From positions 81,935-145,934 of the forward strand of contig JAUSGI010000008.1 of the NCBI GenBank assembly GCA_030649135.1: 64,000 nucleotides of DNA, given 5' to 3'. Shown here in pieces: positions 9,522-54,632 of the stretch. A program made the translations under genes and the position numbers. Every line of letters begins with the position of its first letter. The stretch's first letter is position 1. The notes beneath the pieces are model-generated. The model saw nothing but the letters and a program-made list of their open reading frames with translations. It had not been told where the DNA came from and ran no database searches. This DNA is from a bacterium. GTDB taxonomy: Bacteria > Patescibacteriota > Minisyncoccia > Phycocordibacterales > Zambryskibacteraceae.

Positions 9522-10508
9522 TTACCGCTTTATAATTTTGTTGACTGCTCCGATAATACTTTTGGTGCCCATACCGTAGTGTTCTATGAGTTCATCTGGA
9601 GTTCCGGATTGGCCAAATTGGTCGTCTACGCCCAGAAACTCCATGGGCACCGGGAAATTTTTAGCTAAACATTCCGCCACGGCAGAACCCATACCACCAC
9701 GAATTTGATGTTCTTCCAGAGTTATTATCCTGCCAACTTTCTTGGCAAATTTTACAATACTTTCTTCGTCTAAAGGTTTAATGGTCGCAAGGTTCACTAC
9801 TTCTACTTCAATCCCCTGCTCCTCAAGCTCTTTAGCTGCTAGGAGTGCTCTGTGAAGAAGCGCCCCGGTAGCAATGATACCCGCTTGGGGCTTTTCGCTA
9901 GTCCAGTAAGTTTCTGCTTTACCAATCTTGAAGGGTGTTTGTTCTGTTGTTATAATAGGCGTCTTTTCACGGGCGAGGCGTATATAAACCGGCGTGCCTG
10001 TATCCACGCTTGCCAAAGTGGCTTTCTTGGCTTCTATGGCGTCGCAAGGAGAAAGTACCATCATGCGAGGAATAACGCGAGTGATAGCGATGTCTTCTAT
10101 GGCCTGATGCGTCCCGCCATCAGGACCGACAGAGATGCCGGCATGGGAGCCGATAATCTTAACTGGCCTATCGTTATAACAAATATTGGTGCGAATCTGC
10201 TCCCAATTCCTACCGGGAGAAAACATGGCGTAAGAGCTGATGAAAGGAATCTTGCCCATCGCCGCTAAACCGCTGGCTACTCCGGCAAGGTTTTGTTCGG
10301 CCACTCCAACTTGAATAAATCGGTTCGGAAATTTCTCGGCAAACAGATTCATCTTGGTAGACTCTGTCAAATCAGCGCAGAGCCCCACTACCTGCATGTT
10401 TTTCTCCCCTGCCGCCAAAAGTCCTTCGCCGAATCCTTGCCGAATCGGTATTTGTTCTACATCCTTATCAAATATCTTCGTATTCAGTTTTAAGTCAGGG
10501 TTTAGCAT
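9522..10508 (-). CDS. Transketolase, C-terminal (pyrimidine-binding) subunit
   Basis: Transketolase Pyr and C-terminal domains, with 'GSHAGISVGPDGGTHQ'. Confidence 0.85.
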   Translation of the reverse strand: MLNPDLKLNTKIFDKDVEQIPIRQGFGEGLLAAGEKNMQVVGLCADLTESTKMNLFAEKFPNRFIQVGVAEQNLAGVASGLAAMGKIPFISSYAMFSPGRNWEQIRTNICYNDRPVKIIGSHAGISVGPDGGTHQAIEDIAITRVIPRMMVLSPCDAIEAKKATLASVDTGTPVYIRLAREKTPIITTEQTPFKIGKAETYWTSEKPQAGIIATGALLHRALLAAKELEEQGIEVEVVNLATIKPLDEESIVKFAKKVGRIITLEEHQIRGGMGSAVAECLAKNFPVPMEFLGVDDQFGQSGTPDELIEHYGMGTKSIIGAVNKIIKR

Positions 10509-10531
10509 TATTTATAGTGAGTTTATCGAAC

Positions 10532-11143
10532 CTACCTATTTTTATTAGTCCATAAATTATCCCACCAACTTGACGGGTCCTCGCTTAAAGCTATTTTAGC
10601 CAGGGCCTTGCCACTTTTTGTCTTGAATCTTTCCAAGTATTTGTCCTTCTCGCCCCCTTCACCCGGTTTTCCTTCTAACCAAATCAAAGCTTCTTTATTG
10701 CCTTGCCAAACGTACTCTCGTAAGAGAAAAAGTTGGTCAATCAGGTCAGCCTCTTTGGCTATTATAGCCTCCACGCTTTCCCGCTTGTCATACTCGTCGG
10801 CGATTTCCTTCAAATCTCCGAAGGGCAAAGTGCCGAGTTGTTCAGCTTTAATCTCCTCGTCGAAGATTTTGACATATTTTTTGTGAATCCAGTTGTGGTC
10901 CCCCGTTCTGACTTCGCCCATATCATGAGTAAGGCACATCATCACAACCTTATAAGGATCCGCTTTCTCCATTTTGGCCAAAAACCAGCCTATTAATGTT
11001 GCCCGATAGGAGTGAGTGGCAATATTGTCTGACATGTCATCCGTCAGAAGAGTTTGGCGGTGCATGCGCGGTAATTTGCGCATGGTACCCATTTCAAAAA
11101 GGAACCTGACTATCTTTTGTTCGTTTGAATCACTCATGTTCAC
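10532..11143 (-). CDS. HD-domain phosphohydrolase (YfbR-like 5'-nucleotidase family)
   Basis: HD motif ('HSYRATLI...LTHDMGE'). The gene sits between the two transketolase subunit genes. Confidence 0.6.
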   Translation of the reverse strand: MNMSDSNEQKIVRFLFEMGTMRKLPRMHRQTLLTDDMSDNIATHSYRATLIGWFLAKMEKADPYKVVMMCLTHDMGEVRTGDHNWIHKKYVKIFDEEIKAEQLGTLPFGDLKEIADEYDKRESVEAIIAKEADLIDQLFLLREYVWQGNKEALIWLEGKPGEGGEKDKYLERFKTKSGKALAKIALSEDPSSWWDNLWTNKNR

Positions 11144-12023
11144 TTCTTATTTTACCGCCCAGAGTCCGTAATTCGGACAAAGCCACATCACCCTGTTTAT
11201 CAGCCGGCACTTTATCGGTCGGACCTTTGCCGGGAGGACTGCCGTGCCAGCGGTAATCACGTTCAAATTCCGGAACTCCCTTACCTGCGATAGTATGAGC
11301 AATAATTACGGTTGGTTTGCCGAATATCCCCTTAGCCGCCTCGAAGGCATCAGCAATTTCTTCGATATTGTGCCCATCTATTTCAATCACGTGCCAATTC
11401 CAAGCGCACCATTTATCGGAAAGTGATTCAAGTGGCATAATATTTTCGGTATACCCCTCTATCTGGATATTATTTCTGTCTATTACGGCAGTCAGGTTGT
11501 GTAGCTTCTCTTTGCCCGCAAGCATGGCTGCCTCCCAAGTCTGCCCGCAATCCTGCTCCCCGTCGGAGAGGAGCGCGTAGATGCGTCGCTCACTTGTCAG
11601 ACCGTAGTCAATCTTATCGGCAAGCGCCATACCAACTGCTTGGGAAAGCCCGGAGCCAAGTGGTCCGGAACTGGACTCTAACATTGGCAAAAAATCTCGG
11701 TGCGGATGTCCCTGCAGGCGTGAGCCGAACTTTCGGAGAGTCTTGAGCTCTTCGACCGGAAAATAACCGGCATGAGCCATGGTCGAGTAGAGCACCGGAC
11801 AAATATGGCCATTCGAGAGTACCAACCTGTCCCGTTCCGGCCAGTCTGGTTTCTGGGGATTATGCTTCAGGGTATGAAAGTATAGTACGGTAAAGATATC
11901 GGCCATATCTAAAGGTCCCGCGGTATGCCCGGAGCCGGCGGTAATAAGCGCTTCAATAAGCGAGATGCGAATGTTATTCGCCTTCTCTTTAAGTTCGGTT
12001 AATTTTTCGTCAGTGATTTCCAT
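11130..12023 (-). CDS. Transketolase, N-terminal (TPP-binding) subunit
   Basis: 'GSGHTAGPLDMADIF' and 'LSDGEQDCGQTWEA' match the TPP-binding motif. Confidence 0.85.
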   Translation of the reverse strand: MEITDEKLTELKEKANNIRISLIEALITAGSGHTAGPLDMADIFTVLYFHTLKHNPQKPDWPERDRLVLSNGHICPVLYSTMAHAGYFPVEELKTLRKFGSRLQGHPHRDFLPMLESSSGPLGSGLSQAVGMALADKIDYGLTSERRIYALLSDGEQDCGQTWEAAMLAGKEKLHNLTAVIDRNNIQIEGYTENIMPLESLSDKWCAWNWHVIEIDGHNIEEIADAFEAAKGIFGKPTVIIAHTIAGKGVPEFERDYRWHGSPPGKGPTDKVPADKQGDVALSELRTLGGKIRSEHE

Positions 12024-22971: not shown

Positions 22972-24119
22972 TGCGATTCATACCGGTTTTCGCGGCCAGC
23001 CTCTTTCTCTCCGTACACTTTGGCAGTACCCTTTACTTCCATTCTTCTTTCTTAAACGATTACTTCAAACCTAATGTCGTCAGTTTTCTCTTTCTCCTTG
23101 GAGCCCTCGGTAATATTTTTCTTTTTTTATTTGCTCCTAAGTTGATTCAACGATTCGGCAAGCGTCCTCTGCTCTTTTTTTCCCTCGTCCTAACCGCCGC
23201 CAGTACGTTTATTTTCGCTTTAACTATCACCCGACCAGTGATTATTTTTGCTTTTATCGTCTACAGTAGTTTCCTGCCCATGGTTTATTACTGCCTTGAT
23301 GTTTTCCTGGAAGAACTATCGACAAATGCCAAGACGGGGGAAATCCGGGGTATTTATCTTACTGTATTTAATGCCGGCATAGTCGTGGGACCGCTTATTC
23401 TGGCGATCTTGGCGCAAGAGGGCCCGCCTACTAAATTTCTGTATTTAGTGGCGGGTCTGTTGTTAATACCGCCGGCGATACTAGCGCTTTTTTCTTTCAA
23501 ATCTCAACAGCCTAAAGCGCACAGCCCCTACCACCATTCCCTGCGATTGCCATTCGGCGATTGGTGGCATTCCAAAAACATTCAACGCGTTACTTTAGCC
23601 AGACTAACACTCGAATTGTTCTTCGCCTTTATGGTTATCTATGTTCCAATTTATCTCCATACTGGGCTTGGTTTCGCGTGGTCAGAACTTGGTATTATTT
23701 TCACCGTTATGCTTCTGCCTTTTGTGCTGTTCGAGTGGCCAGCAGGCGAACTTGCCGACCGTCTCCTGGGGGAAAAAGAGATTATGAGTGCCGGTTTTTT
23801 CATTACTGGCATATCTCTGCTCATCATGCCTTTTATAGGGAAAGTATTTTGGGCATGGATGGCTATCCTTTTTATCTCAAGAGTTGGAGCGAGTCTAATC
23901 GAGGCGATGACCGAAAGTTATTTCTTTAAACATATCAACGCGCGTGATACCGGTCTGATAAGCATTTTTCGCTTAACCCGTGCGTCCGGTTTCGTTTTGG
24001 GCGCCATAGTCGCCACTCTGACTTTAAATTTTTTCTCGTTCGATAAAATTTTTTTTGCTCTGGCGGTGATAGTCTTCTTCGGTCTCAAACAAAGTTTGTC
24101 TCTCAGAGATACGCGGTAG
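22968..24119 (+). CDS. MFS transporter
   Basis: 383 aa with about 11-12 predicted TM helices, typical of the MFS fold. Confidence 0.65.
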   Translation: MMRFIPVFAASLFLSVHFGSTLYFHSSFLNDYFKPNVVSFLFLLGALGNIFLFLFAPKLIQRFGKRPLLFFSLVLTAASTFIFALTITRPVIIFAFIVYSSFLPMVYYCLDVFLEELSTNAKTGEIRGIYLTVFNAGIVVGPLILAILAQEGPPTKFLYLVAGLLLIPPAILALFSFKSQQPKAHSPYHHSLRLPFGDWWHSKNIQRVTLARLTLELFFAFMVIYVPIYLHTGLGFAWSELGIIFTVMLLPFVLFEWPAGELADRLLGEKEIMSAGFFITGISLLIMPFIGKVFWAWMAILFISRVGASLIEAMTESYFFKHINARDTGLISIFRLTRASGFVLGAIVATLTLNFFSFDKIFFALAVIVFFGLKQSLSLRDTR

Positions 24120-24130
24120 AAAAATTTATA

Positions 24131-24162
24131 AAAAAATAGGACCCGCCAAGTAGGCCGGGTCC
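24131..24162 (-). terminator. Hairpin terminator for island gene a (GGACCCGCC...GGCCGGGTCC followed by a T-run on the minus strand)
   Basis: An A-run at 24131-24137 on the plus strand precedes a GC hairpin at 24139-24162. Confidence 0.5.
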
Positions 24163-24199
24163 TGTGGCAGTTTGGGGAGGTCTGCCAACCTTTACTTCT

Positions 24200-24388
24200 C
24201 TACTCGGCGGGTCGGAACTTACGACGAGGCCGACTTTGTTTCAGGTCTTCGTCACACCCTACCATCTCCCTTTCTATCACATCCTGGTCAGAGAGGTCTT
24301 CATCCTCCGACCCATGCATCAGTCCAAAACCCTTAAGGAGTCGAATTTCCTTACTCGAAGGATCTACGCCTGTCTTTCTCTTTTTCAT
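24200..24388 (-). CDS. Island gene a: small acidic hypothetical protein
   Basis: 62 aa. SD 'AAGGAG' lies 6 nt upstream of the ATG. The gene sits in the ~60% GC segment and is followed by a hairpin terminator. Confidence 0.5.
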   Translation of the reverse strand: MKKRKTGVDPSSKEIRLLKGFGLMHGSEDEDLSDQDVIEREMVGCDEDLKQSRPRRKFRPAE

Positions 24389-24514
24389 CTGGGCTCCTTA
24401 TGTCCTGCTTCCCTTTCGATTATGTTCAGGGTGAAGGCTTACAGACACTAACGCTCTGTCCTTTAGAGTGGCATGAACAAGCTAGTTTGTCAATTAGTTG
24501 TAATCGTTGTATAG

Positions 24515-24544
24515 AAAAAGGACCCTCCATGCTGGCAGGGTCCC
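24515..24544 (-). terminator. Hairpin terminator for island gene b (AAAAA-GGACCCTCC-N-AGGGTCC)
   Basis: 'aaaaaggaccctccatgctggcagggtccc'. It is near-identical in design to the hairpin at 25517-25545. Confidence 0.5.
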
Positions 24545-24621
24545 GTTGTGAGTTGAGGCCGTGTCCTCAACTCGTTTGTACTTAGGCGTGACATCGGCAC
24601 GCATTGGGATCTGAAACTCTG

Positions 24622-24852
24622 CTAGTCCCCGATCGCCCCACTTCGTGAGAACGGGCGAGAGACGCCCGGTAACACCCGGGACGGATCCATCCCGAGGCGC
24701 TGCCTCAGCCACGCGACCCACTCCGGATAGCTCGGAGTGAGAAGCACGACGACCTCGTCGTAGGTCGGCGTGTCCCCAAGCACGTCGCACACGGCTGGCA
24801 AAAGAAGCCGGCGTGTTTCCTTGTCGAGTCTCCGACCCGATGCGTCATTCAT
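24622..24852 (-). CDS. Island gene b: hypothetical protein
   Basis: 76 aa with a strong SD 'GAGGAGAAGG' upstream of the ATG. The gene is GC-rich. Confidence 0.5.
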   Translation of the reverse strand: MNDASGRRLDKETRRLLLPAVCDVLGDTPTYDEVVVLLTPSYPEWVAWLRQRLGMDPSRVLPGVSRPFSRSGAIGD

Positions 24853-25085
24853 TGCCTTCTCCTCATCGCGCTTTGCGCGACTTTAAACATTTAGCAGTGC
24901 GTCCTCTTGCGAGGCCTATACGCACTGCGGTTCAGCCCCCTCTGTGCGGGGAATCGATACTTGATTATATTTTCTTTCTCAAAGAACTAACTGTTTCGCC
25001 CTTTCGGACTCATCAGCGCAGATACACATCTGCGAACAGCGGGAAGTTTTGCTGAGATACTTCCCGAAACTCTGGGTTTGCACGG

Positions 25086-25406
25086 TTACCCCTTCTTCTT
25101 CTTGCTACCGGCACCCATGCCAGCGGCCATCCGGCGCTGCTCCTCCGCGCGCTCGCTCCGGTGGGCGAGGTAGCGCTTGTGCGCCGCCTCACGGATGGAG
25201 GCCGAGAACTCGGTCTCCTTCCGACGCCGCTCGGACAGCATGCGCCTGGCGCACGCCAGGCGTGGCCGCCAGAAATCGGAGGTCGCGAGTTGCTTGTCGA
25301 GCTCGACCGCGGCGATATCCGCCGCAACGGTCGAAGTGGCGACCTGCACCGGCAGGGTGCAGGCCAGAAACTCTATCACTCGGCCAATGGAGCGTGTCGC
25401 ATTCAT
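25086..25406 (-). CDS. Island gene c: hypothetical Ala/Arg-rich protein with a KKKKG tail
   Basis: 106 aa with SD 'AAGGAGAA'. Upstream on the minus strand lies TTGACAA-N17-TATCAT. Two hairpins follow downstream. Confidence 0.5.
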   Translation of the reverse strand: MNATRSIGRVIEFLACTLPVQVATSTVAADIAAVELDKQLATSDFWRPRLACARRMLSERRRKETEFSASIREAAHKRYLAHRSERAEEQRRMAAGMGAGSKKKKG

Positions 25407-25516
25407 GGCGTTCTCCTTATCGTGCCTCCCCTTCGTCTATACTTAGGGTGAGGACTTTCTAGCTACAATGATAGCATAATACAACTTATTTGTCAATGGC
25501 TTTAAATAGTTAAAAG

Positions 25517-25545
25517 TAAAAGGGCCCTCCGTGTAGGCAGGGCCC
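25517..25545 (-). terminator. Hairpin terminator for island gene d (AAAA-GGGCCCTCC-N-AGGGCCC)
   Basis: 'aaaagggccctccgtgtaggcagggccc'. Confidence 0.5.
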
Positions 25546-25564
25546 AGTCGAAACGCCACCTAGT

Positions 25565-25960
25565 CTAGTAACTGGTGGGGAAAGCAGATGTCAGCGCCTC
25601 CCCCTGGTCGCTTGCCGGGTTGGGGTTGAACCAAACCCGAGAGATGGACCCATGGCCGATGTGATACACGCCGGCCAGAGTACATGAGCCATCCCGCTGT
25701 GCGGGGTGATGTACGAACACCCCGAAACGCAGACGGGCCAGCGCGGCCGCGATGCAGAACGGCACATCCGCGACGGCATAGACGAAGCCATCGCCATGCT
25801 CGCGGACGTAGTCCGCGAGCCCATCCGTGGTGACGAACACCGTGGGGTCCTTCACGATCTCCACGTAAACACCGTGGAGAGTTCGCATCGCCCGCCGCTG
25901 TGTGGGCGACATGTCGTAACGCGATAACCAATAAATCCTCCCGATGTAAATTCTGTTCAT
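25565..25960 (-). CDS. Island gene d: hypothetical protein
   Basis: 131 aa starting at the ATG at 25960 ('MNRIYIGRIYW...'), with SD 'GGGGGAA'. Upstream on the minus strand lies TTGACAA-N17-TATTAG. No family recognised. Confidence 0.5.
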   Translation of the reverse strand: MNRIYIGRIYWLSRYDMSPTQRRAMRTLHGVYVEIVKDPTVFVTTDGLADYVREHGDGFVYAVADVPFCIAAALARLRFGVFVHHPAQRDGSCTLAGVYHIGHGSISRVWFNPNPASDQGEALTSAFPTSY

Positions 25961-26068
25961 GGTTCCCCCACTCTGCCTCCCATTTCTCGGAGGGCTATAG
26001 GTAATACAACCTTGGTCTGCTCTCACTAATAGCACAGCACAATTCTCTTGTCAACAGCGTCCATAAAT

Positions 26069-26503
26069 CTAATACACATTTAGGAGTTTGAAAATTGGAG
26101 CAAGGAACGGGTCGAAATGAGTACCGTAGACGGTGGCGCCGAAGAGTCCGCCGGCAACCACAATAAAAAATAGTCCGATAATAGCCAAGGGAATTATGAT
26201 GACTGGCAAGAGCATTTTAGACCATCTAACGTAAGCCAGAGAAATAATGCCGAAGATAGTGGCAGTGATAAGAATAAAAATTTTATACATGGTTACCAGA
26301 GGACTATCCCCCGCCAAATTAGCGCTCATGTAAGCGGTGACAACCGTAGCAATAGCGCCCAGCTCACCGACTACGAGCAAAGTTCCTTTGATAGGGAGCC
26401 AGTGCGGAGAGTCCAATAATTTTTTGAAACGCATTAGTTCAAAAACAGTATAAGTTGTCAAAAATGCTATGGGGTAGTGTATCACCAGTGGATGAATGTC
26501 CAT
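26069..26503 (-). CDS. DUF2231-like membrane protein
   Basis: 'MDIHPLVIHYPIAFL' matches the DUF2231 N-terminal signature and is followed by 4 TM helices. Confidence 0.55.
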   Translation of the reverse strand: MDIHPLVIHYPIAFLTTYTVFELMRFKKLLDSPHWLPIKGTLLVVGELGAIATVVTAYMSANLAGDSPLVTMYKIFILITATIFGIISLAYVRWSKMLLPVIIIPLAIIGLFFIVVAGGLFGATVYGTHFDPFLAPIFKLLNVY

Positions 26504-26504
26504 T

Positions 26505-28154
26505 TTATTTCTTATTTTTTATTATAGCTTTTATAAAAGCCGTGAAAAGAGGGTGGGGGGAAAGAGGTCGCGCTTTGAACTCCGGATGAAATTGCGTTGA
26601 GAGATAAAATGGGTGAGCATTTTTAGACAATTCAGCTATTTCGCAAAGTCTCCCGTCTGGAGACATGCCGGAGAAAATCATGCCTGCCTTATTAAGTCTT
26701 TCAATATAAGCAGGATTAACTTCAAAACGATGCCTGTGTCTCTCGGAAATTTTATTTGTCGCGTAGGCCTTGTGGGCAAGAGTCTTTGGTTTAAGAACCG
26801 CCGGCCAAGCACCCAGGCGCATGGTGCCGCCAAGTTTACCGTCTTTAATTTTATCTTTCTGCTCTTCCATGACATCTATCACCGGGTATTTGGTTTCTTT
26901 ATCTACTTCCGTAGTGTGTGCACCCTTGAGACCGGCCACATGCCGTGCGTACTCCACTACCGCCAGTTGCATACCGTAACAAAGCCCGAGATACGGAATC
27001 TTCTTTTCCCTCACAAACTTAATTGCGCTGATAATGCCCTCCACGCCGTTGGAACCAAAACCACCCGGCACTATCACTCCATCGTAATTTTTAAGTTCAC
27101 TTACTTTGCGTTTACCCGTCTCGTATTCTTTGGCATTTATCCAGACTAGTTTAGGCTTCACGCTTTGCCAATAGGCAGAGAATTTGACAGCTTCTATAAC
27201 CGACACGTAGGCATCGGAGAGCACAAAGTCTCCGGTGTCGAAATATTTACCTACTACCGCAACCCTCACTTCCCTCTTGGCGGACTTGGTTTTAGAAACA
27301 AATTTTTTCCAGGCGACTAAATCCTTTTTGCGTGGTTTGAGACCGAAGTGGCCGAGAATCCTTTGACTTAACCCGTCCCGTTCAAAATTTATCGGCACAT
27401 CATAAATACTTTCGATATCCGGCGCTGCAATGATATCCTCACTCGACACGCCCGTGGCCAGAGCGATTTTCTCCTTCCGCTTCTGGTCAATCGACACCTC
27501 GCTTCTTGCGATAATCATGTCCGGTTGGATACCGTAGGAATTGAGTTGGCGGATAGCATTTTGGGTAAGTTTGGTTTTCATCTCGCCGAGCTTGCCCGGC
27601 ACAGGAAGATAAGAGACCATCACGAACATAACGTTTCTTGGTTCTCGAATTTTCATTAGGCGGGCTGCTTCGAGAAAAATGGCATTCTGATATTCGCCGA
27701 CCGTACCGCCGATTTCGAGTACGGTAATATCCGCATTAGTTTTAGAAACTGAATGATGAATACGATTGAATATCTCTTCCGTTACGTGATAGACCGGTTC
27801 CACACACTTGCCGTTGTATCCAAGAGCGCGCTCTTTATCTATAACATGTTTAAGAATCATGCCATTGGTCAGATAATTTTCCGAAGGCATATCGGCATTG
27901 AGGAAACGTTCGTAATTGCCCATATCCTGGTCAGTCTCAAGACCGGAATCCAGCACAAAGACTTCTCCATGTTCGACCGGATTCATGGTGCCGGCATCGA
28001 CATTTAAATAAGGGTCAGCCTTGATCAGACTGACCGAGAAACCTTTTGACTGGAGAATGGCGCCAATAGAGGAGGTGGCGATACCTTTGCCGACTCCCGA
28101 CATTACTCCGCCCACGACAAAGATATATTTATACCGACCTTCCTTTTTTCTCAT
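26505..28154 (-). CDS. pyrG: CTP synthase
   Basis: A synthetase domain ('GGVMSGVGKGI') is followed by a GATase domain ('GLCYGMQ'). Confidence 0.95.
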   Translation of the reverse strand: MRKKEGRYKYIFVVGGVMSGVGKGIATSSIGAILQSKGFSVSLIKADPYLNVDAGTMNPVEHGEVFVLDSGLETDQDMGNYERFLNADMPSENYLTNGMILKHVIDKERALGYNGKCVEPVYHVTEEIFNRIHHSVSKTNADITVLEIGGTVGEYQNAIFLEAARLMKIREPRNVMFVMVSYLPVPGKLGEMKTKLTQNAIRQLNSYGIQPDMIIARSEVSIDQKRKEKIALATGVSSEDIIAAPDIESIYDVPINFERDGLSQRILGHFGLKPRKKDLVAWKKFVSKTKSAKREVRVAVVGKYFDTGDFVLSDAYVSVIEAVKFSAYWQSVKPKLVWINAKEYETGKRKVSELKNYDGVIVPGGFGSNGVEGIISAIKFVREKKIPYLGLCYGMQLAVVEYARHVAGLKGAHTTEVDKETKYPVIDVMEEQKDKIKDGKLGGTMRLGAWPAVLKPKTLAHKAYATNKISERHRHRFEVNPAYIERLNKAGMIFSGMSPDGRLCEIAELSKNAHPFYLSTQFHPEFKARPLSPHPLFTAFIKAIIKNKK

Positions 28155-28711: not shown

Positions 28712-29602
28712 ATGAACAAAATAATCATTGCGCTGGCTGTAATCATGATTGCTGGTTTGGGTGTTTACTTTATAAACAAGAGTCCTACAAAGGTAGTAAA
28801 TCCTCCCGAAAGCCAGAATACTACTGCTACCACTACGCCCATAGCGAAAGAAGAAAATCCAAGCGAATCGATTATCGGTAAATCGGTCGAGAATCGCGAC
28901 ATCATCGCCTACCACTACGGCACCGGTGAGACGGAACTATTGTTTATTGGCGGGATACATGGCGGATATTCGTGGAATACGGCACTGGTCGCATTTGAGT
29001 TGATGGACTATCTCAAGGCAAGCCCCAATATCATTCCCAAGAATATAAAAGTGACGGTCATTCCGGTACTGAACCCGGACGGTTTGAATAAAGTTGTCGG
29101 CACTGCTGGTCGCTTTACCCCATCGGATGTGCCGTCGCCAATATCCGCCACGGTGGCTGGTCGCTTTAACGCCAATACCGTTGACCTTAATCGTAACTTC
29201 GACTGTGACTGGAAAGCTTCAGGCACATGGCAAAGCAAAACCGTCAGCGGCGGAAGCAGGGCTTTCTCCGAACCCGAAACCCGGGCAATCAAAAGCTACG
29301 TAGAATTAAACAAACCAGACGCAGTCGTGACCTGGTATAGTGCCGCAGGGGGTGTCTATGCCTCCGAGTGCGGTAAGGGCATTTCCGCCGAAACCCGGGC
29401 TATCACAAAAGAATTTGCCGATACCTCCGGCTATCCTGCTTTTGATGATTTCGACTTCTATGAGGTAACGGGCGACATGGTCAATTGGTTTGCCAAGAAT
29501 AATATCCCAGCCATCAGCGTGCTTCTCACGAACCACACAGACACCGAATGGACAAAAAATCAGAAAGGCATCCAGGCTCTCCTCAAGTATTACGTCAAAT
29601 AA
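28712..29602 (+). CDS. Secreted M14 / AstE-AspA-superfamily zinc-peptidase-like protein (paralog 1)
   Basis: TM anchor, then 'GGIHGGYSWN' and 'VDLNRNFDCDW' (M14-like DxNRNF motif). The canonical HxxE appears altered. Confidence 0.5.
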   Translation: MNKIIIALAVIMIAGLGVYFINKSPTKVVNPPESQNTTATTTPIAKEENPSESIIGKSVENRDIIAYHYGTGETELLFIGGIHGGYSWNTALVAFELMDYLKASPNIIPKNIKVTVIPVLNPDGLNKVVGTAGRFTPSDVPSPISATVAGRFNANTVDLNRNFDCDWKASGTWQSKTVSGGSRAFSEPETRAIKSYVELNKPDAVVTWYSAAGGVYASECGKGISAETRAITKEFADTSGYPAFDDFDFYEVTGDMVNWFAKNNIPAISVLLTNHTDTEWTKNQKGIQALLKYYVK

Positions 29603-30471
29603 TGCCCAGGAAGGTTATTGTTCCGGTTGTCATTGTCATCTTGGGTATTGGTGCGTTTGTGCTGTTTAATTTTTACGGAAAATCTAGAGAAGCGCCATCG
29701 ATAGTAGACTTAGAGCCCAAGTGGCCCCAATTCGAAGTCATCGGCCAATCCGTCGAGGGGCGCAAAATTGAAAGTTATACATATGGAGACGGAGATAAAT
29801 ATGTGCTGTTCGTGGGTGGCATCCACGGGGGTTACGAGTGGAACAGTGTACTCCTCGCTTATCAATTCATCGACTACTTGGCGGCCAATCCTACTACCGT
29901 ACCCCCCAATTTAACTATCGCAGTAATACCTTCGGCTAATCCTGACGGAGTCTATAGAGTGGTAAGCAAAGAAGGTCGTTTTACCAGCACCGATGTTTCT
30001 ACCGACAAAGAAACCCTGGCCTCGGGACGTTTTAATGCGCACAAGGTAGACCTTAATCGCAACTTTGACTGCAATTGGAAACCGACAAGCCTGTGGCGAG
30101 AGAAGACCGTGAGTGCCGGCTCCGAGCCATTCTCCGAGCCGGAAGCAATGGCACTGCGAACATTTGTTTTAGAAAACAAACCGGATGCCGTTATCTTTTG
30201 GCATAGTCAATCCAACGCTGTGTACGCATCAGAGTGCCAGTCAGGTATTCTTCCGGAAACACTTGATATCATGAACGCCTACTCGCGTGCGTCAGGATAC
30301 CAGGCGGTCAAGTCATTTGACAGTTACGATGTCACAGGCGACTCTGAAGGGTGGCTCGCTTCTATCGGTATCCCGTCCATTACGGTCGAGCTTAAAGACC
30401 ACGAGAACATAGAGTGGGAGAAGAACCTAGCCGGTATCAAAGCTATACTCGGATACTATTTGACAAAATAA
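29602..30471 (+). CDS. Secreted M14 / AstE-AspA-superfamily zinc-peptidase-like protein (paralog 2)
   Basis: Same architecture ('GGIHGGYEWN', 'VDLNRNFDCNW'). The start is the ATG overlapping the upstream stop (TAATG). The ORF is open back to 29548. Confidence 0.5.
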   Translation: MPRKVIVPVVIVILGIGAFVLFNFYGKSREAPSIVDLEPKWPQFEVIGQSVEGRKIESYTYGDGDKYVLFVGGIHGGYEWNSVLLAYQFIDYLAANPTTVPPNLTIAVIPSANPDGVYRVVSKEGRFTSTDVSTDKETLASGRFNAHKVDLNRNFDCNWKPTSLWREKTVSAGSEPFSEPEAMALRTFVLENKPDAVIFWHSQSNAVYASECQSGILPETLDIMNAYSRASGYQAVKSFDSYDVTGDSEGWLASIGIPSITVELKDHENIEWEKNLAGIKAILGYYLTK

Positions 30472-30519: not shown

Positions 30520-31752
30520 TTGGAGATTATCTCTATTACGCAGACGCAAGTCTATAAACCTCACGAGCGAGGTTTATCTTATATGCAAAATGGAAATCGC
30601 GGCTTTAGGCCGCAAAATAGAGGACGTATAGGCAAGTGGCCCCAGAAGGCCTTTTCTGACGTGTCGAAGTTTATAAATAAGGATATTATCAACCTTGAGA
30701 CGGAGCACTTCGCGCCGGAACATTCTTTCGCCGATTTCAAATTCCAAGAAATATTGAATCAAAATATCAAAGCGAAGGGCTACATCACTCTTACGCCTAT
30801 TCAGGATAAGGCCATCCCCTATGTTATGGCCGGCAAAGATATTGTCGGTATCGCCAATACCGGTACCGGTAAGACGGCCGCTTTCCTTATCCCACTTATC
30901 AATAAAATTATTCTCGACTCCCGAGAGAAGGTCCTGATTGTGGTACCCACCCGTGAGCTGGCGCACCAGATAGACGAGGAGCTACGAGTTTTTGCCAAAA
31001 ACTCAAACCTTTTTTCCGTGCTCTGTATTGGCGGTGTCGGTATGGGTAAACAGATTAGAGAACTCTATCAGAGACACCATTTTGTCATCGGCACACCCGG
31101 GCGTTTGAAAGACCTCATGGAACAGAAAGTACTTGACCTCTCCGGATTCAAGACTATCGTCCTTGATGAGGCTGACAGAATGCTCGATATGGGCTTTATT
31201 CGTGATATGCGTTTTATGATGTCAAAAATGCCCAAAGAGAGGCACACGCTCTTCTTCTCCGCCACTTTATCGCCGGAGATTGAGAAACTTATTCATGAAT
31301 TCCTACGCGAACCGGTGCGTATCTCGGTGAAAACTCAAGATACTCCCAAGAATGTACACCAAGATGTGGTGAGAATTCCGAAAGATAAAACCAAACTGGA
31401 TATCCTTCACAATCTTCTTACGCAAGTGGAGTTTAGTAAGGTGCTCATCTTCGGCCGTACTAAACACGGAGTAGAGAAGCTTGCCCATGAGTTAGGAAAG
31501 CGAGGTTTCAAAGCCGAATCTATCCACGGCAACAAGAGTCAACCACAAAGACAGCGAGCGCTGGAGCTCTTCAAGCACGACCACGCCCAAGTGCTTACCG
31601 CGACCGATGTGGCCGCACGTGGTCTCGACATTTCCGATGTGACACATGTCATCAACTTTGATTTGCCGGCTACCTATGACGACTACGTCCATCGTATCGG
31701 CCGTACCGGCCGCGGTAGTAAGTCAGGCAAGGCCCTCACATTTATCGAGTAA
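30520..31752 (+). CDS. DEAD-box ATP-dependent RNA helicase
   Basis: Q-motif, 'ANTGTGKT', 'VLDEADRMLDMGF', 'SAT' and 'HRIGRTGR'. The exact start is uncertain. Confidence 0.85.
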   Translation: MEIISITQTQVYKPHERGLSYMQNGNRGFRPQNRGRIGKWPQKAFSDVSKFINKDIINLETEHFAPEHSFADFKFQEILNQNIKAKGYITLTPIQDKAIPYVMAGKDIVGIANTGTGKTAAFLIPLINKIILDSREKVLIVVPTRELAHQIDEELRVFAKNSNLFSVLCIGGVGMGKQIRELYQRHHFVIGTPGRLKDLMEQKVLDLSGFKTIVLDEADRMLDMGFIRDMRFMMSKMPKERHTLFFSATLSPEIEKLIHEFLREPVRISVKTQDTPKNVHQDVVRIPKDKTKLDILHNLLTQVEFSKVLIFGRTKHGVEKLAHELGKRGFKAESIHGNKSQPQRQRALELFKHDHAQVLTATDVAARGLDISDVTHVINFDLPATYDDYVHRIGRTGRGSKSGKALTFIE

Positions 31753-31753
31753 A

Positions 31754-32170
31754 CTAACGTACAGTCAGAGTACCAACCATACCCATAGCGCGATGATTGC
31801 CGATTGAGCAGTAGTATTGGAAAGAGCCAGTCTTATCGGCGACAAAGGTAATCGTTTGTTCTTCTCCGACTTTAAGGGTACGGGTGGCGACACCAAATTC
31901 GTCTATCTTTAAGTCGTGAGTGCCGTTCACGTTCTTAACGGTAATTTTAACAGTATCTCCTTTATTGACCACCAAGGTCGTAGGAGTAAATGAGAAAGGA
32001 ACCGCCTCGATATTAAATTCCTTAACTCCGATTAAGTTAGTTTGTACCTCCTCTTCCAGCACTTTTTCTTCCACTACTGCCGTTGGCGCAATACTTTTAC
32101 TTTTGAAAAGTAGGAAACCGCCAACAATCAGGACAACAACAATGACAACTGAAATTATTTTATTATTCAT
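31754..32170 (-). CDS. Membrane-anchored plastocyanin-like (type-1 blue copper, cupredoxin) protein
   Basis: The C-terminus 'GSFQYYCSIGNHRAMGMVGTLTV' parallels plastocyanin 'YSFYCSPHQGAGMVGKVTV' (Cys/His/Met ligands), with an upstream His in 'VNGTHDLKIDEFGV'. There is an N-terminal TM helix. The gene is the last of the ftsE-ftsX operon. Confidence 0.7.
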   Translation of the reverse strand: MNNKIISVVIVVVLIVGGFLLFKSKSIAPTAVVEEKVLEEEVQTNLIGVKEFNIEAVPFSFTPTTLVVNKGDTVKITVKNVNGTHDLKIDEFGVATRTLKVGEEQTITFVADKTGSFQYYCSIGNHRAMGMVGTLTVR

Positions 32171-32181
32171 GATACTTTAAA

Positions 32182-33123
32182 TTATACCTTCAAGTACTTT
32201 CTAATGGCAAGAGCGCTCGAGAGCGCGCCGATAGACACTCCGGAAACCATAATGATGGAAGCAATCTCCAGGAAGTGGCGAAAATAATAAGAGAAGATAT
32301 TGAAGCCTACAAAGAAACTTTCGGTAGTACTGCCAAGCCAGTAAGTAAGGGGTAAAAGGATTAGCAGAGTCAAGAGGCCTGCCACCACTCCGTAAATAAT
32401 GCCAACCACCACGAACGGTCCCCTGATGTAGGTGGTCGAGGCACCCACCAAGCGCATGACACTTATCTCATCCCGAGCGAGGTAGATGGTCAGACGAATG
32501 GTATTGAAGGCAATCAGCACGGAAATAATGGCCAGAAAGAGCGTCAAGGCGAAACCGAGCCGGTCAGCGGAGGAAATAATTTGTGTCAGTTTGTCTATGG
32601 CCACTTTGTTCTGAAAGTAATTAACTCGGTCAATAATAGGCACACCGCCGGAGGCAAGCGCGCTCCCACTCTCCAGAAACTCGGCTACGGAAGCGTACTG
32701 GGCTGGGTCCCTGGCTCTGACATTAAGAACCGCCCCCAGCGGATTTTCACCCAGCTCATTAAGAGCGGAAAGAATGGGCTGGTCACTTGCGTGTCTCTCT
32801 TTGAAGGCAGTGAGCGCCTCCTCGCGCGAAACATAAGTGACCAAAAAGACTTCGGAGAGAGATTCAATGGTATGTTTAATATTTAAAATATCCTCTTCTT
32901 TGGCCGAAGTGACAAAAGTGACGTTAATATCAATCTTATTTTTCAATTCGGCCAGAGTAGTATCGAGAATGGCGCTGGAGAAAGAAATGAGACCAATAAC
33001 CAAAAGTGTAACCATCATCACCAAAACGGAGGCGAGAGTAACCGTGCCGTCTCTCCAGAAGTTGAAAAATCCGGTGCGTAGGATTCTCTTTAATTTTGTC
33101 CAAAACATTTGCTTTTTCGTCAT
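32182..33123 (-). CDS. ftsX: Cell-division ABC transporter permease FtsX
   Basis: 313 aa with 4 TM helices and a periplasmic loop. It overlaps the ftsE stop. Confidence 0.8.
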   Translation of the reverse strand: MTKKQMFWTKLKRILRTGFFNFWRDGTVTLASVLVMMVTLLVIGLISFSSAILDTTLAELKNKIDINVTFVTSAKEEDILNIKHTIESLSEVFLVTYVSREEALTAFKERHASDQPILSALNELGENPLGAVLNVRARDPAQYASVAEFLESGSALASGGVPIIDRVNYFQNKVAIDKLTQIISSADRLGFALTLFLAIISVLIAFNTIRLTIYLARDEISVMRLVGASTTYIRGPFVVVGIIYGVVAGLLTLLILLPLTYWLGSTTESFFVGFNIFSYYFRHFLEIASIIMVSGVSIGALSSALAIRKYLKV

Positions 33124-33800
33124 ACGAAATATTTGCCGGCTTTTTCATCGCGGACAATCTTGCCTCGATTCATGGCCACGACGCGCTTCTTCAACAAATC
33201 AATTATACCTTTATTGTGCGTGGCGAGTATGACGGTGGTGCCAAGATCGTTAATCTTTTTTAATATCTGCACTATGTCGTAGGTATTGGCTGGGTCAAGA
33301 TTGCCTGTCGGCTCATCGGCAATAATGATATCCGGTTCGTTGACCAAGGCGCGGGCAATAGCTACTCGCTGCTTCTCACCGCCCGAGAGTTCGCGCGGAA
33401 AATTCCAAATCTTCGGCATCAAGTCTACCAATTCAAGAACATGGGGAACATCCGACTCTATCTCACTATCCGTTCGACCAGCTGCTTCCATGGTGAAGGC
33501 GATATTCTCGTAGACGGTCTTATTGGGCAGAAGCCGAAAATCTTGGAAAACCATGCCCACTTTTCTGCGAAAGGCATCAATTTCTTTCTTGTTGAGAGTG
33601 TGGATATTGGTAGATTCGTAATACACGGAACCTTCGGTCGGCTTTTCTTCCGCGAGAAAAAGTTTCAAGAGTGTGGTTTTGCCGGCACCGGATGGTCCGA
33701 CGATAGAGATAAATTCCTCCGGCTCGATTGAGAGCGTTACCTCCTCCAGAGCTATGGAATTATCGGGATAAATTTTAGACACACGGTCAAAAACAATCAT
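33120..33800 (-). CDS. ftsE: Cell-division ATP-binding protein FtsE
   Basis: Walker A 'GPSGAGKTT', the ABC signature 'LSGGEKQR' and Walker B 'IIIADE'. Confidence 0.85.
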
Positions 33801-33862
33801 GTCTCTCTATTCTATCATGCGACTATCCGCCCAACAAGATAAAATATGCTATATTATCAACA

Positions 33863-34450
33863 ATGAAGGGACGAATTATCGTTATAATTGCTGTTTGCGC
33901 CGCTGGGATAATATTTTTTATTAGCACTTACCCATCGAAAACCGTGCGGTCTTTCCCGAACCCTGATTTACCCCTTGTCTCCCCTGTGCTCTCTGCTCCG
34001 CCCATAGACATACTATCCGGTAATGACCCGCTATTGGCTACCCGAGCATGGATGACCTTCCAGAACTATCTGGAATTTGCCCGCACTCATAATCTACCAG
34101 GGATAAAAAGTTTGTCTCATCAAATTTCCGACACATGTAATGACCCTGTAAAAGAGCAGAGGTGTTTCGCTCTGATGGACAGCGTGTACATTATGGCTAG
34201 TAAACTAAAGATGGACGAATTCAAACATATCCAAGCAGACCGACGCCAGATTATGATGTTTACAGATGGACCGATAGTGGCAATTCTTTATTTCACCAGA
34301 GATGAAAGCCTTACTCCCAAGATGCTCGGCCTTAGGTTTTGTTTCGAAGAGACAACGACACCGGGAAGATGTGTCGAGGCTGATCCCAAACTGCGCGACC
34401 AGGATGGCAACGGCTGGTGGGACAACGTTGAATCACTTTTCTACCGTTAG
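33863..34450 (+). CDS. Hypothetical membrane-anchored/secreted protein
   Basis: 195 aa with an N-terminal TM helix and several Cys. No family recognised. Confidence 0.4.
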   Translation: MKGRIIVIIAVCAAGIIFFISTYPSKTVRSFPNPDLPLVSPVLSAPPIDILSGNDPLLATRAWMTFQNYLEFARTHNLPGIKSLSHQISDTCNDPVKEQRCFALMDSVYIMASKLKMDEFKHIQADRRQIMMFTDGPIVAILYFTRDESLTPKMLGLRFCFEETTTPGRCVEADPKLRDQDGNGWWDNVESLFYR

Positions 34451-34464
34451 TTCAAATACGCTTC

Positions 34465-34890
34465 CTAGGACCTGTCGGTACTTTTCAATGCCAAGAGAGC
34501 CAACACCAGAATATAAACAATGTGTTCGTCAAGCAGAGGATGGTTGGCAGGCGGGAAAGCGGCCAAATACATTAACAAGAACATAAGACTGCCGGCAAGT
34601 GCTCCCCAGACAACCTTCCTATTAAGTAATAGGGTAAGTCCCACGGAGAGAAGTCCCAGCATAAAGAGCCAATCAACCACGGGCATCCCGGAGAGACCCT
34701 TGAAAAATTCCGCCAAAGGCCCACGGGTGGCATTCATTAAGAATCCAGAAGTGGGCGAACCGCCGTTAATCCAAGCTTTTTCGCTTGTGGTGGCAAAGCC
34801 GAGTCCGAACAACTTATCGACAAACGCCCAAAGGAAAATTAGACCCATTGATAAACGTAGCGCGAGCCAAACAATTTTTTTCTTCTTCAT
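34465..34890 (-). CDS. DoxX-family membrane protein
   Basis: 141 aa with 4 TM helices and a DoxX-like sequence. Confidence 0.55.
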   Translation of the reverse strand: MKKKKIVWLALRLSMGLIFLWAFVDKLFGLGFATTSEKAWINGGSPTSGFLMNATRGPLAEFFKGLSGMPVVDWLFMLGLLSVGLTLLLNRKVVWGALAGSLMFLLMYLAAFPPANHPLLDEHIVYILVLALLALKSTDRS

Positions 34891-52967: not shown

Positions 52968-53926
52968 ATACTGAAATTGGCGACAGAATAGAGAGACTCG
53001 TCGTCTTCGGATTTTACTGGCTCGTCCTCTGCGAGAATTTTGTCCTCCTCTGTCAGAGCTGGAACGTCTGCTATAGACATGTTTACTTCATGTGAGTTTT
53101 TAAATTCTTTATCCACAATAATTCTTTCAAGTAGAGCTCGTAGGTCATCTTTATTGAAAAAGTCTATCGTCACTCGCCCGCCTTCTTCCTTCTTTTCTAT
53201 TCTCACTCGAGTACCCAATTTCTCTTTAAACAAGCCCTCGATATCTATAAGTTCTTGGTCGATCAACTTGCGGGCACGCTCGACCGCAATGTGACGTGCG
53301 ATACCTTCCGCCTCCCTGACGTTGAGTTTTTTGAAAATAATTTCTTTGAAAAGCGTTTCTTGCTCCTGTGGCCTGTCGGTAAGCATCATGAGTGGCCGGG
53401 TATGGCCCTCGCTAATCTTATTTTCCGATAGAGCGTTAATAATATATTCCGGCAAAGAAAGAATGCGCAGAGAGTTTGAGACAAACTCACGACTCTTCCC
53501 TACTTTCTTGCCGATCTCGTGATGCTTGAACTTAAATTCTTTCGACAGGCGGTCGAAAGCGCGGGCACGGTCAACGGGACTAAGGTCCTCGCGCTGAATG
53601 TTTTCGATGATAGCGAGCTCAAGTTTCATTAGGTCAGTTTCCTCACCATCGCGAATGAGTACTGGTACTTGCGCGAGGCCAGCTAGGCGAGCGGCGCGGA
53701 GGCGCCGCTCGCCGGCCACCAATTCATATTCCACACCAATCCCCCCCTCCTCCTTTTCCACTTCTTTACGCGTCACCACAAGAGCCTGAAGCACGCCATA
53801 TTGGCGGATGGAATCCGCCAAACTCTTGAGCTGAACTTCATCGAAGTCACGGCGGGGCTGGTATGGGTTCGGCTTAATTTTATCCACCTCTATCCAGAAA
53901 ATAGAGTCGTTATAGAATCGGGACAT
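52964..53926 (-). CDS. parB: ParB/Spo0J-family partition protein
   Basis: ParB box 'GVLQALVV...ELVAGERRLRAARLAG', an HTH and an acidic C-terminus. Confidence 0.8.
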   Translation of the reverse strand: MSRFYNDSIFWIEVDKIKPNPYQPRRDFDEVQLKSLADSIRQYGVLQALVVTRKEVEKEEGGIGVEYELVAGERRLRAARLAGLAQVPVLIRDGEETDLMKLELAIIENIQREDLSPVDRARAFDRLSKEFKFKHHEIGKKVGKSREFVSNSLRILSLPEYIINALSENKISEGHTRPLMMLTDRPQEQETLFKEIIFKKLNVREAEGIARHIAVERARKLIDQELIDIEGLFKEKLGTRVRIEKKEEGGRVTIDFFNKDDLRALLERIIVDKEFKNSHEVNMSIADVPALTEEDKILAEDEPVKSEDDESLYSVANFSI

Positions 53927-53969
53927 GCAAATATTATATCAAATGTTTTTATGCTATTCTATGGTAGAC

Positions 53970-54052
53970 GCTGGAGTGATGGAATGGCAGACATGCAGCA
54001 CTCAAAATGCTGTGGGCGCAAGCCCGTGTGGGTTCAAGTCCCACCTCCAGCA
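53970..54052 (+). tRNA. tRNA-Leu (anticodon CAA)
   Basis: Hand fold. Acceptor GCTGGAG/CTCCAGC, 3-bp D-stem, anticodon stem CAGCA/TGCTG with loop CTCAAAA, a 15-nt variable arm (GGGC-GCAA-GCCC), T-arm GTGGG-TTCAAGT-CCCAC. No CCA is encoded. Confidence 0.8.
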
Positions 54053-54053
54053 C

Positions 54054-54632
54054 ATGCTAAATCTTACCGATAAAACTTTGGTGGCATATGTTATTGGTAT
54101 CGCTCTTGGCGATGGAAATCTTTCTAATCCGAATGGACGTGCAGTTAGATTAAGAATAACCTGTGACTCTAAATATCCCTTTTTGATTTCTAAGATTGAA
54201 CAGTCATTAAAGAAATTGGCCCCTAAAAATAAAGTCTCTCGAATCAATAGAGGAGATAATGCCATAGATGTCAGCTGCTATTCAAATCAATGGGAGCAAT
54301 TACTCGGTTGGAAGGCCTACGGTGGCTCAAAAATAAGACAATCGGTTCGCATACCTAGTTGGATATTTAGAAATAAAAAACTTTGTCAGGCTTGTTTGTG
54401 CGGACTATGGGAGACCGATGGTTCGGTTTACAAAGACAGAAAATATATAACAGCAAATTTTGTGACTCAGATTCCAAGCCTCGCACAAGGTGTGGCGAAG
54501 ATGATTCTTAAAACCCGCTACAAGGCTTCTATACAAAAATTGGTCTTATCTGATAACAGAGAAAAATTTACTTTCAGAATTCATAGAAATGCTTCTCAGT
54601 TTATTAAAGAAATGTCTATAGAGAAAAGGTGA
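54054..54632 (+). mobile_element. Free-standing double-motif LAGLIDADG homing endonuclease gene
   Basis: Motif 1 'VIGIALGDGNLS' and motif 2 'LCGLWETDGSV'. The ATG sits 2 nt after the tRNA-Leu 3' end. The frame is open back through the tRNA to 53925. Confidence 0.7.

Follow-up and report, generated by a model that had tools for sequence, protein, structure and literature searches.

In the genome of a member of the Zambryskibacteraceae (Patescibacteriota; assembly GCA_030649135.1), the two genes of the cell division complex FtsEX are followed by a small gene that encodes a cupredoxin. The locus lies on contig JAUSGI010000008.1, in a stretch of 64 kb (64,000 nucleotides, nt) that represents the analyzed part of the genome and is called the window below. 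All positions are those of the window, and the features are listed in Table 1. The three open reading frames (ORFs), i.e., ftsE, ftsX, and an ORF of 138 amino acids (aa), are co-oriented on the minus strand. FtsE was assigned with the NCBIfam equivalog model TIGR02673 (269.2 bits versus a cut-off of 264.85), and FtsX was recognized by the Pfam families FtsX_ECD (53.6 bits) and FtsX (37.3 bits), both above their thresholds. The NCBIfam FtsX models scored below their cut-offs on this protein (FtsX_Gpos, 192.6 versus 225). The 138-aa protein is identical to NCBI entry MDO8590237.1, which is annotated as 'cupredoxin domain-containing protein', and the convergent gene for a DEAD-box helicase closes its transcription unit. 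A preliminary description of this DNA had viewed the protein as the plastocyanin-like product of the third gene of an ftsEX operon. It had proposed either a redox-active copper protein, the partner of which it left unnamed, or a cupredoxin fold that was co-opted as an FtsEX-associated factor.

The 138-aa protein exceeded the gathering scores of two Pfam families, Copper-bind (PF00127, 36.8 versus 21.2) and Cupredoxin_1 (PF13473, 36.5 versus 27), and a sequence search against solved structures matched cupredoxin domains with an E-value of 3e-15. An AlphaFold2 model was built with an alignment of 42 sequences. Foldseek assigned a probability of 1.0 to its similarity with nitrosocyanin, a Cupredoxin_1 protein of Bacillus anthracis, the N-terminal domain of the copper nitrite reductase NirK of Hyphomicrobium, auracyanin, and AcoP. 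The model consists of an N-terminal helix, a flexible linker, and a beta-sandwich, so that the membrane anchor of the preliminary description was recovered (residues 3-22), but of the 138 residues some 90 belong to the fold and not the whole protein. The residues A28 and P29, which follow the hydrophobic helix, are at least 90% conserved among the homologues. Because Ala28-Pro29 places a Pro at position +1 of the sole A-x-A-like site, the N-terminal helix is probably an uncleaved signal anchor. Neither a coiled coil nor a hydrolase or LytM domain was found in the AlphaFold2 model, and the Pfam and NCBIfam searches of the protein matched only cupredoxin and copper-oxidase families.

The ligand motifs and the upstream His that had been quoted before are both present. 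In a BLASTP alignment with poplar plastocyanin, H85, C121, H126, and M131 were aligned with His37, Cys84, His87, and Met92, respectively. All four residues are invariant, both in the 42 aligned homologues (42/42) and in the true family members from species-level genomes (74/74), and the protein contains a single Cys. The order of the ligands is thus that of plastocyanin, as had been claimed, but the spacing in the ligand loop is not, because it is two residues longer (C-x4-H-x4-M). In addition, several NCBIfam equivalogs stayed below their cut-offs, namely plastocyanin (TIGR02656, 34.2 versus 87.85), nitrosocyanin (TIGR03096, 51.7 versus 142.85), and CopI (24.2 versus 280). The first two scores are far under the cut-offs, and therefore the protein is a generic type-1 cupredoxin and not a plastocyanin proper. 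Judged from its sequence and model, this cupredoxin is anchored in the membrane and has all residues of a predicted type-1 (blue) copper site, which would be expected to bind copper. The four invariant ligands point to a redox role, and the earlier proposal of a redox-active copper protein is consistent with the evidence.

A scan with one genome per species detected the family in at least 553 species-level genomes, nearly all of them Patescibacteria of several classes. The named relatives belong to the Zambryskibacteria, Parcubacteria, and Minisyncoccia within the Patescibacteria group; the taxon labels in many record titles are automatic and possibly wrong. In public records, proteins of this family already carry the annotation plastocyanin or cupredoxin. 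Passages of two publications (PMC5581439, PMC12931201) propose single-domain cupredoxins ('pcy') in genomes of the Candidate Phyla Radiation (CPR) as electron donors of NirK. Because these passages already note such a protein, its presence in a CPR-type organism is not new, and the statement that it is unexpected for this type of organism was not upheld. The window protein is an ordinary member of an already annotated family that is common in CPR bacteria. CPR bacteria/Patescibacteria are generally described as being devoid of electron-transport chains (PMC7507113). The occurrence of a tethered blue-copper carrier in hundreds of CPR species despite this reported absence makes the partner with which it exchanges electrons a real question.

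Next, the transcription signals between ftsX and the cupredoxin gene were considered. The 3'-terminal codons of ftsX contain a sigma-70-like promoter. Its -10 box, which extends over the stop codon, ends 10 nt ahead of the ATG of the cupredoxin gene. A sequence scan revealed no terminator-like site between the two genes. The comparison included distinct loci with an FtsX at least 60% identical to that of the window. The motif NTATAAT was present over the ftsX stop codon in 22 of the 29 loci with a cupredoxin gene versus 4 of the 12 loci without it, and two of these four represent recent deletions. The remaining 7 of the 29 loci have longer spacers, several of them with TATAAT boxes of their own. 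In the cupredoxin-bearing loci the last ftsX codon varies between GTA, ATA, CTA, and TTA, and TATAAT is kept. In the loci without the gene the last ftsX codon is GTC, GTT, or ATC, and a hairpin terminator directly follows ftsX. Among the Val codons of the window, GTA is used least (19%). The variable last codon, the retained TATAAT, and the rarity of GTA therefore point to selection on the DNA motif. The cupredoxin gene probably has its own promoter, the use of which would yield a nearly leaderless mRNA. The common strand, the gap of 11 nt, and the lack of a terminator agree with a third gene of the ftsEX operon, but the promoter-like site, which matches 11 of 12 consensus positions, means that this is not the whole story. 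A further, weak promoter-like element lies upstream of ftsE. It was read directly from the sequence, is under the threshold of the scan tool, and is only a putative promoter.

To describe the conservation of the linkage, two sets of loci were used. The cupredoxin-centred set comprised the 80 best species-level loci (one genome per species) with about 6-10 kb around each match, and the FtsX-centred set was taken from a metagenome scan, the distinct loci of which were binned by the identity of their FtsX to that of the window. Genes in the compared loci were simple longest-ORF calls. The order ftsE-ftsX-cupredoxin on one strand was found in 14 of the 80 species-level loci, which have an FtsX 61-89% identical to that of the window. 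In three further loci ftsE-ftsX-pyrG is convergent with the cupredoxin gene, in one locus two genes lie between, and in the rest the cupredoxin gene is located elsewhere. In the metagenomic set, 28 distinct loci had an FtsX at least 74% identical, and the cupredoxin gene was adjacent in 17, at a distance of 1-4 kb in 2, and absent in 9 of them. For 31 distinct loci with an FtsX less than 60% identical the respective numbers were 0, 0, and 31. Thus, the linkage is retained in close relatives, as had been asked of it, and absent from more distant ones, and it does not extend beyond a Zambryskibacteria-like clade.

In about 21 of the 31 distant loci, pyrG follows ftsX directly or past one small ORF (FtsX 44-58% identical, Paceibacteria-like, L119-L160; e.g., L123:4001-6609). 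The older gene order is therefore ftsE-ftsX-pyrG, and pyrG has been displaced in the window. The ftsX-pyrG order is kept more deeply than the ftsX-cupredoxin order and does not suggest a common function, and thus adjacency to ftsX need not reflect function. Two loci document the loss of the cupredoxin gene in place. The first is L107 (FtsX 82% identical), which contains at positions 4940-5035, after an intact ftsX, the cupredoxin remnant 'MNNKAIGCYCSMGNHRAVVVEEFTVR' plus stop, which consists of the fused first and last codons, and in which TATAAT is retained. The second is L098 (FtsX 86% identical), in which the cupredoxin gene has been lost and ftsEX is intact. Taken together, the adjacency to ftsEX appears to be local gene-order history without functional weight. 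A neighbour-joining tree of the 92-aa domain with labels for the gene contexts had too poor a resolution for counting independent origins of the ftsX context.

Most family members occur in contexts other than ftsEX. Among 73 loci, nine have the order HlyD, ABC ATPase, MacB-type permease, and cupredoxin, in several cases with a small Gly-rich protein between. Four supposed 'ligand-less cupredoxin paralogues' between the MacB permease and the cupredoxin were rejected, because alignment showed that they represent this different type of small Gly-rich beta protein. Nine loci encode an unknown 380-aa protein, the cupredoxin, a diacylglycerol kinase, a thioredoxin, and DsbB. In five loci the cupredoxin gene is followed by a gene for a protein of 430-445 aa with Ferric_reduct, FAD-binding, and NAD-binding domains, and in one more this gene is upstream. 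A DUF2231 membrane protein is encoded nearby in seven loci, Redoxin in two, and CopA in two.

The closest solved relative of the ferric-reductase-like protein is the bacterial NADPH oxidase (NOX) SpNOX (8qq7, 8qt6). The gene for the NOX-like protein starts 5-9 nt behind the cupredoxin gene in L017 (5998-7739), L019, and L026, the last two of which are labelled Peregrinibacteria. A reverse test started from eight NOX-like genes that were picked from long contigs. In three of them a cupredoxin gene is located directly upstream (L165:2982-4820, L166:2714-4814, L168:2992-4817). As to the other five, a cytochrome b5 gene is directly upstream in L161 (2575-4802) and nearby in L167, DUF2231 is adjacent in L164, and two have neither neighbour. 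The cytochrome b5 of L161 has the same build as the cupredoxin, i.e., a small redox domain that is connected by a long polar linker to a helix at the N-terminus. Moreover, in a cluster with the order HlyD-MacB-MacB-small protein-carrier-NOX the slot of the carrier is occupied by cytochrome b5 in L161 and by the cupredoxin in L166 and L067. The exchange of one tethered carrier for an unrelated one is the strongest contextual evidence that the family comprises electron carriers that work with the NOX-like protein, and it suggests that the MacB association belongs to the NOX cluster and not to the cupredoxin as such. Outside the window clade, the NOX-like gene is thus the neighbour with which the cupredoxin gene is most tightly paired, and this pairing occurs in several CPR lineages. 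The combination of cupredoxin or cytochrome b5 with a NOX-like protein may represent a minimal pathway by which these related loci, which do not include the window itself, export NAD(P)H electrons to the cell surface. DUF2231, with an invariant HPxxxHxP motif, recurs beside the cupredoxin gene in L021, L035, L039, L044, L045, L052, and L056 and beside the NOX-like gene in L164, and its product is possibly a partner in the membrane that binds a metal or haem. In the searchable literature no relevant report on the adjacency of ftsX and cupredoxin genes, no mention of a pairing of CPR cupredoxins with a NOX-like protein or cytochrome b5, and likewise nothing relevant on DUF2231 were found.

Based on these results, we consider it likely that the window protein is a surface-tethered one-electron carrier of the type-1 copper class that is expressed at least in part on its own, that came to lie beside ftsEX by a rearrangement within its clade, and that has a NOX- or ferric-reductase-like donor encoded elsewhere instead of being an accessory of FtsEX. 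The uncleaved helix and the flexible linker would hold the cupredoxin on the outside of the cytoplasmic membrane. CPR bacteria are not known to have an outer membrane, and a soluble carrier would thus be lost. Single electrons would be shuttled via a Cu(II)/Cu(I) site, for which His85, Cys121, His126, and Met131 provide the ligands. Transcription of the gene would start at the promoter over the ftsX stop codon and yield a near-leaderless mRNA, to which ftsEX read-through probably adds, because no terminator separates the genes. Its position after ftsX would be a clade-specific rearrangement of the older order ftsE-ftsX-pyrG and would not imply that it works together with FtsEX. As judged from other lineages, the likeliest upstream partner would be a NOX/ferric-reductase-like flavocytochrome that moves cytoplasmic NAD(P)H electrons across the membrane. 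Candidates for the final acceptor, which is not encoded in the window, are NirK, O2, metal ions, and surface repair enzymes.

Several points weigh against this interpretation. The promoter was recognized by its match to the consensus and is supported by the comparison of loci, and its start site is predicted; co-transcription with ftsEX is likely besides the internal promoter, because no terminator follows ftsX. The adjacency is still present at about 61% FtsX identity (L065, L049, L023), which is a fairly long persistence for a purely accidental arrangement. The compared loci are phylogenetically related, and thus their counts do not equal independent events. Lastly, genes for a NOX-like protein, NirK, a multicopper oxidase, cytochrome c, cytochrome b5, CopA, and CopZ are all absent from the 64 kb of the window, and therefore the proposed partner is only a candidate for this organism. 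Pfam, motif, and tblastn screens of the window also revealed no second cupredoxin, CuA, haem-c motif, or copper chaperone, so that the suggested search for copper chaperones or oxidases had a negative result for this stretch. The single P-type ATPase of the window is of type II and has no HMA domain.

The best surviving alternative is that the protein is a dedicated, pseudoazurin-like donor to a copper nitrite reductase encoded elsewhere. This function was put forward for CPR cupredoxins in the passages of PMC5581439 and PMC12931201 mentioned above. It would be in line with the best sequence match, a domain fused to the NirK of Hyphomicrobium (E = 3e-15), and with nirK having been reported in Patescibacteria genomes from oxic wells of the Hainich groundwater, the source of several related contigs. 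However, neither the motif HC-x6-10-H-x3-6-M nor tblastn with a NirK core fragment revealed an ORF of the NirK type in the window or, for the 80 species-level loci, at distances of up to about 6 kb from the cupredoxin gene. Similarly, motif and tblastn screens found NirK, multicopper-oxidase, and CuA motifs to be absent from all 160 loci, which contain sporadic ORFs with CxxCH. A dedicated role as NirK donor is rather unlikely; as a downstream step it is compatible with the tethered carrier favoured here.

It is improbable that the protein handles copper as a surface chaperone or tolerance protein, similar to CupA of Streptococcus pneumoniae or to CopI, and does not carry electrons. CupA likewise combines a membrane anchor with a cupredoxin fold and belongs to a bacterium that has no respiratory chain, which counts for such a role, as do an HMA-domain copper P-type ATPase encoded two genes away in 2 of the 73 loci (L058, L078) and the weak NCBIfam match to CopI (24.2 bits). 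On the other hand, the latter score is far under the cut-off of 280 bits, and the canonical His-Cys-His-Met set with one Cys is unlike the Cys/Met-rich Cu(I) sites of CupA and is not accompanied by the extra His/Met region of CopI. Moreover, linkage to CopA is rare, and the type II ATPase of the window without an HMA domain offers no support.

Still more doubtful is a role as FtsEX accessory, in which the cupredoxin-fold protein would take the place of EnvC, PcsB, CwlO, or RipC as extracytoplasmic partner or regulator and perhaps link division to the copper or redox state. The cupredoxin gene is co-oriented with ftsX and starts 11 nt downstream of it with no terminator between, 14 of 80 species-level loci and 17 of 28 close metagenomic ones share this arrangement, and in nine other loci the gene follows another permease of the FtsX fold, of the MacB type. 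But the adjacency vanishes in the distant loci (0/31 at FtsX identities below 60%), in which pyrG is the deeper conserved neighbour, and the in-place deletions in L107 and L098 with intact ftsEX suggest that division is normal without the gene. Furthermore, the cupredoxin has a promoter-like element of its own and occurs mostly in other contexts, it contains no coiled coil, hydrolase, or LytM domain, and its invariant ligands point to a redox role. In the MacB cluster cytochrome b5 can fill the same slot and the cluster runs into a NOX-like gene, which ties the carrier to NOX and not to the ABC system. The co-option proposed in the preliminary description was thus not borne out. Least probable of all is a coupling to ABC systems of the FtsX fold (type VII, mechanotransmission) in general, in which FtsEX or MacB would load, position, or sense the cupredoxin, or division would be gated by the surface redox or copper state; it is based on the gene being located behind two different FtsX-fold permeases in two lineage sets, and the evidence presented here weakens it.

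Further genes and elements lie around the locus. The clade-restricted, anchored 195-aa protein encoded divergently from ftsE has 74 homologues, which are restricted to Zambryskibacteria and contain conserved Cys residues, and its gene is linked to ftsEX even in cupredoxin-less relatives. It was considered as the missing FtsEX partner and was rejected, as it matches no Pfam family and contains neither a hydrolase domain nor a coiled coil. Its model contains an anchored alpha+beta domain, the best Foldseek match of which was not significant (E = 0.09, NTF2/SnoaL-like folds). The adjacent weak DoxX-like membrane protein has 48-50% identity to cluster c19, and its homologues adjoin the cupredoxin-NOX pair in the Peregrinibacteria loci L019 and L026. 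Two tandem, N-terminally anchored paralogues of M14 zinc peptidases (28712-30471, plus strand, ORFs overlapping by 55 nt) are encoded immediately past the convergent helicase gene. They recur near the cupredoxin gene in L007 and L060 and may be peptidases of peptidoglycan peptides. A Pfam search with nearly all larger ORFs of the window revealed housekeeping functions, i.e., translation factors, ribosomal proteins, and enzymes of glycolysis and the pentose-phosphate pathway. Further genes with Pfam matches encode GroES/EL, RNase J, topoisomerase I, RelA/SpoT, ParB, and Clp ATPases.

Three additional observations were made at a larger distance. First, an element similar to a type III hammerhead ribozyme is present at 24988-25042 (minus strand). 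It has 37.5 bits with Rfam RF00008, below the gathering score of 48.5 (E = 1.7e-6 for 601 nt), the cores CUGAUGAG and CGAAAC are intact, and it folds into a three-way junction. The respective segment (within 24001-26000) has 55% G+C versus about 46% elsewhere and contains only short ORFs without Pfam match, and it may be a foreign or mobile insert. Second, an ORF with a LAGLIDADG homing-endonuclease domain (53925-54632, plus strand; domain at residues 156-215) extends across a tRNA-Leu(CAA) gene (53970-54053, plus strand) and continues past it. Its true start is probably downstream of the tRNA gene, and it may encode a mobile endonuclease beside a tRNA. Third, transketolase is split into two genes (9522-12023, minus strand), for the N-terminal half (11130-12023) and the C-terminal half (9522-10508), with a gene for an HD-domain protein between (10532-11143).

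Table 1. Genes, protein segments, and transcription signals at and around the ftsE-ftsX-cupredoxin locus (pLDDT, predicted local distance difference test score)
Feature	Position	Strand	Remarks
ftsE, ABC ATPase of the FtsEX division complex	33120-33800	-	TIGR02673, Pfam ABC_tran
ftsX, permease-like division protein	32182-33123	-	Pfam FtsX_ECD and FtsX; 4-nt overlap with ftsE
FtsX extracellular domain, residues 65-151	32671-32931	-	
Cupredoxin gene, 138 aa	31754-32170	-	Pfam Copper-bind, Cupredoxin_1; start 11 nt past ftsX stop
N-terminal transmembrane anchor, residues 3-22	32105-32164	-	AlphaFold2 helix
Flexible acidic linker, residues 23-47	32030-32104	-	pLDDT 44-59; length differs among aligned homologues
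Cupredoxin beta-sandwich domain, residues 48-138	31757-32029	-	AlphaFold2 sandwich 49-137, pLDDT about 98
His85 codon, predicted N-terminal copper ligand	31916-31918	-	Invariant; aligns with plastocyanin His37
Predicted ligand loop	31778-31810	-	Cys121 31808-31810, His126 31793-31795, Met131 31778-31780; C-x4-H-x4-M
Sigma-70-like promoter, TTGCCA, 18 nt, TATAAT	32181-32210	-	11/12 consensus; within ftsX 3' end
Weak promoter-like element, TTGTTG, 17 nt, TAGAAT	33809-33837	-	Upstream of ftsE; -10 box ends 8 nt before ATG
DEAD-box helicase gene, convergent	30520-31752	+	Pfam DEAD, Helicase_C; stop 1 nt from cupredoxin stop
pyrG (CTP synthase)	26505-28154	-	Pfam CTP_synth_N, GATase; 3.6 kb away, same strand as ftsX
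DUF2231 membrane protein	26069-26503	-	Invariant N-terminal HPxxxHxP motif; comes after pyrG
Clade-restricted anchored protein, 195 aa, 5 Cys	33863-34450	+	Divergent from ftsE
Weak DoxX-like membrane protein	34465-34890	-	Pfam DoxX E = 0.0063, below cut-off

Lastly, the window cupredoxin was compared with known systems. With EnvC, PcsB, CwlO, and RipC it has only the genomic position beside ftsX in common, which is used in some bacteria. These proteins dock on the extracellular domain of FtsX via coiled coils and carry LytM, CHAP, or NlpC/P60 domains. In contrast, the window protein comprises no more than a single membrane helix and a beta-sandwich. Among the fold matches, nitrosocyanin of Nitrosomonas europaea (PDB 1iby) ranked first, and it was also the best match in NCBIfam, with 42% identity over 79 columns. 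However, it is a red copper protein with a Glu aligned with His85 and without the axial Met, whereas the window protein has the classical blue set. Plastocyanin shares the fold, the four ligands in the same order, and the match to Pfam Copper-bind, but in its loop (C-x2-H-x4-M) the stretch from Cys to His is two residues shorter. In addition, plastocyanin is soluble, and its partners, cytochrome b6f and photosystem I, are both not expected in the window organism.

The N-terminal domain of NirK of Hyphomicrobium denitrificans (PDB 2dv6, 6tfd) is the best match at the sequence level (E = 3e-15) and has a Foldseek probability of 1.0. The loop of 2dv6, 'YYCSIAGHRQAGM', has the C-x4-H-x4-M spacing of the window protein, and the upstream His within 'HD' is common to both. 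The difference is that the electron-transfer cupredoxin domain of Hyphomicrobium is fused to NirK, whereas the window protein is free-standing, tethered to the membrane, and not accompanied by a nearby NirK. The single-domain CPR cupredoxin 'pcy' (Danczak et al. 2017, PMC5581439; PMC12931201) is a protein of the same kind from the same superphylum, for which passages of these publications propose a role as surface electron carrier. There it is tied to NirK, and those passages make no mention of ftsEX or of a NOX-like partner.

Auracyanin of Chloroflexus and Roseiflexus (PDB 1qhq, 6kol) resembles the window protein in being a blue copper protein of one domain that is tethered to the membrane and has the ligands His-Cys-His-Met. 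The Foldseek probability is again 1.0, at a template modelling (TM) score of about 0.57-0.65 and a sequence identity of about 23%. The spacing C-x4-H-x4-M is also found in the ligand loops of auracyanin and rusticyanin. Auracyanin serves a full photosynthetic and respiratory chain, which CPR bacteria lack. Judged by this comparison, auracyanin offers the best analogy for how the window cupredoxin may work.

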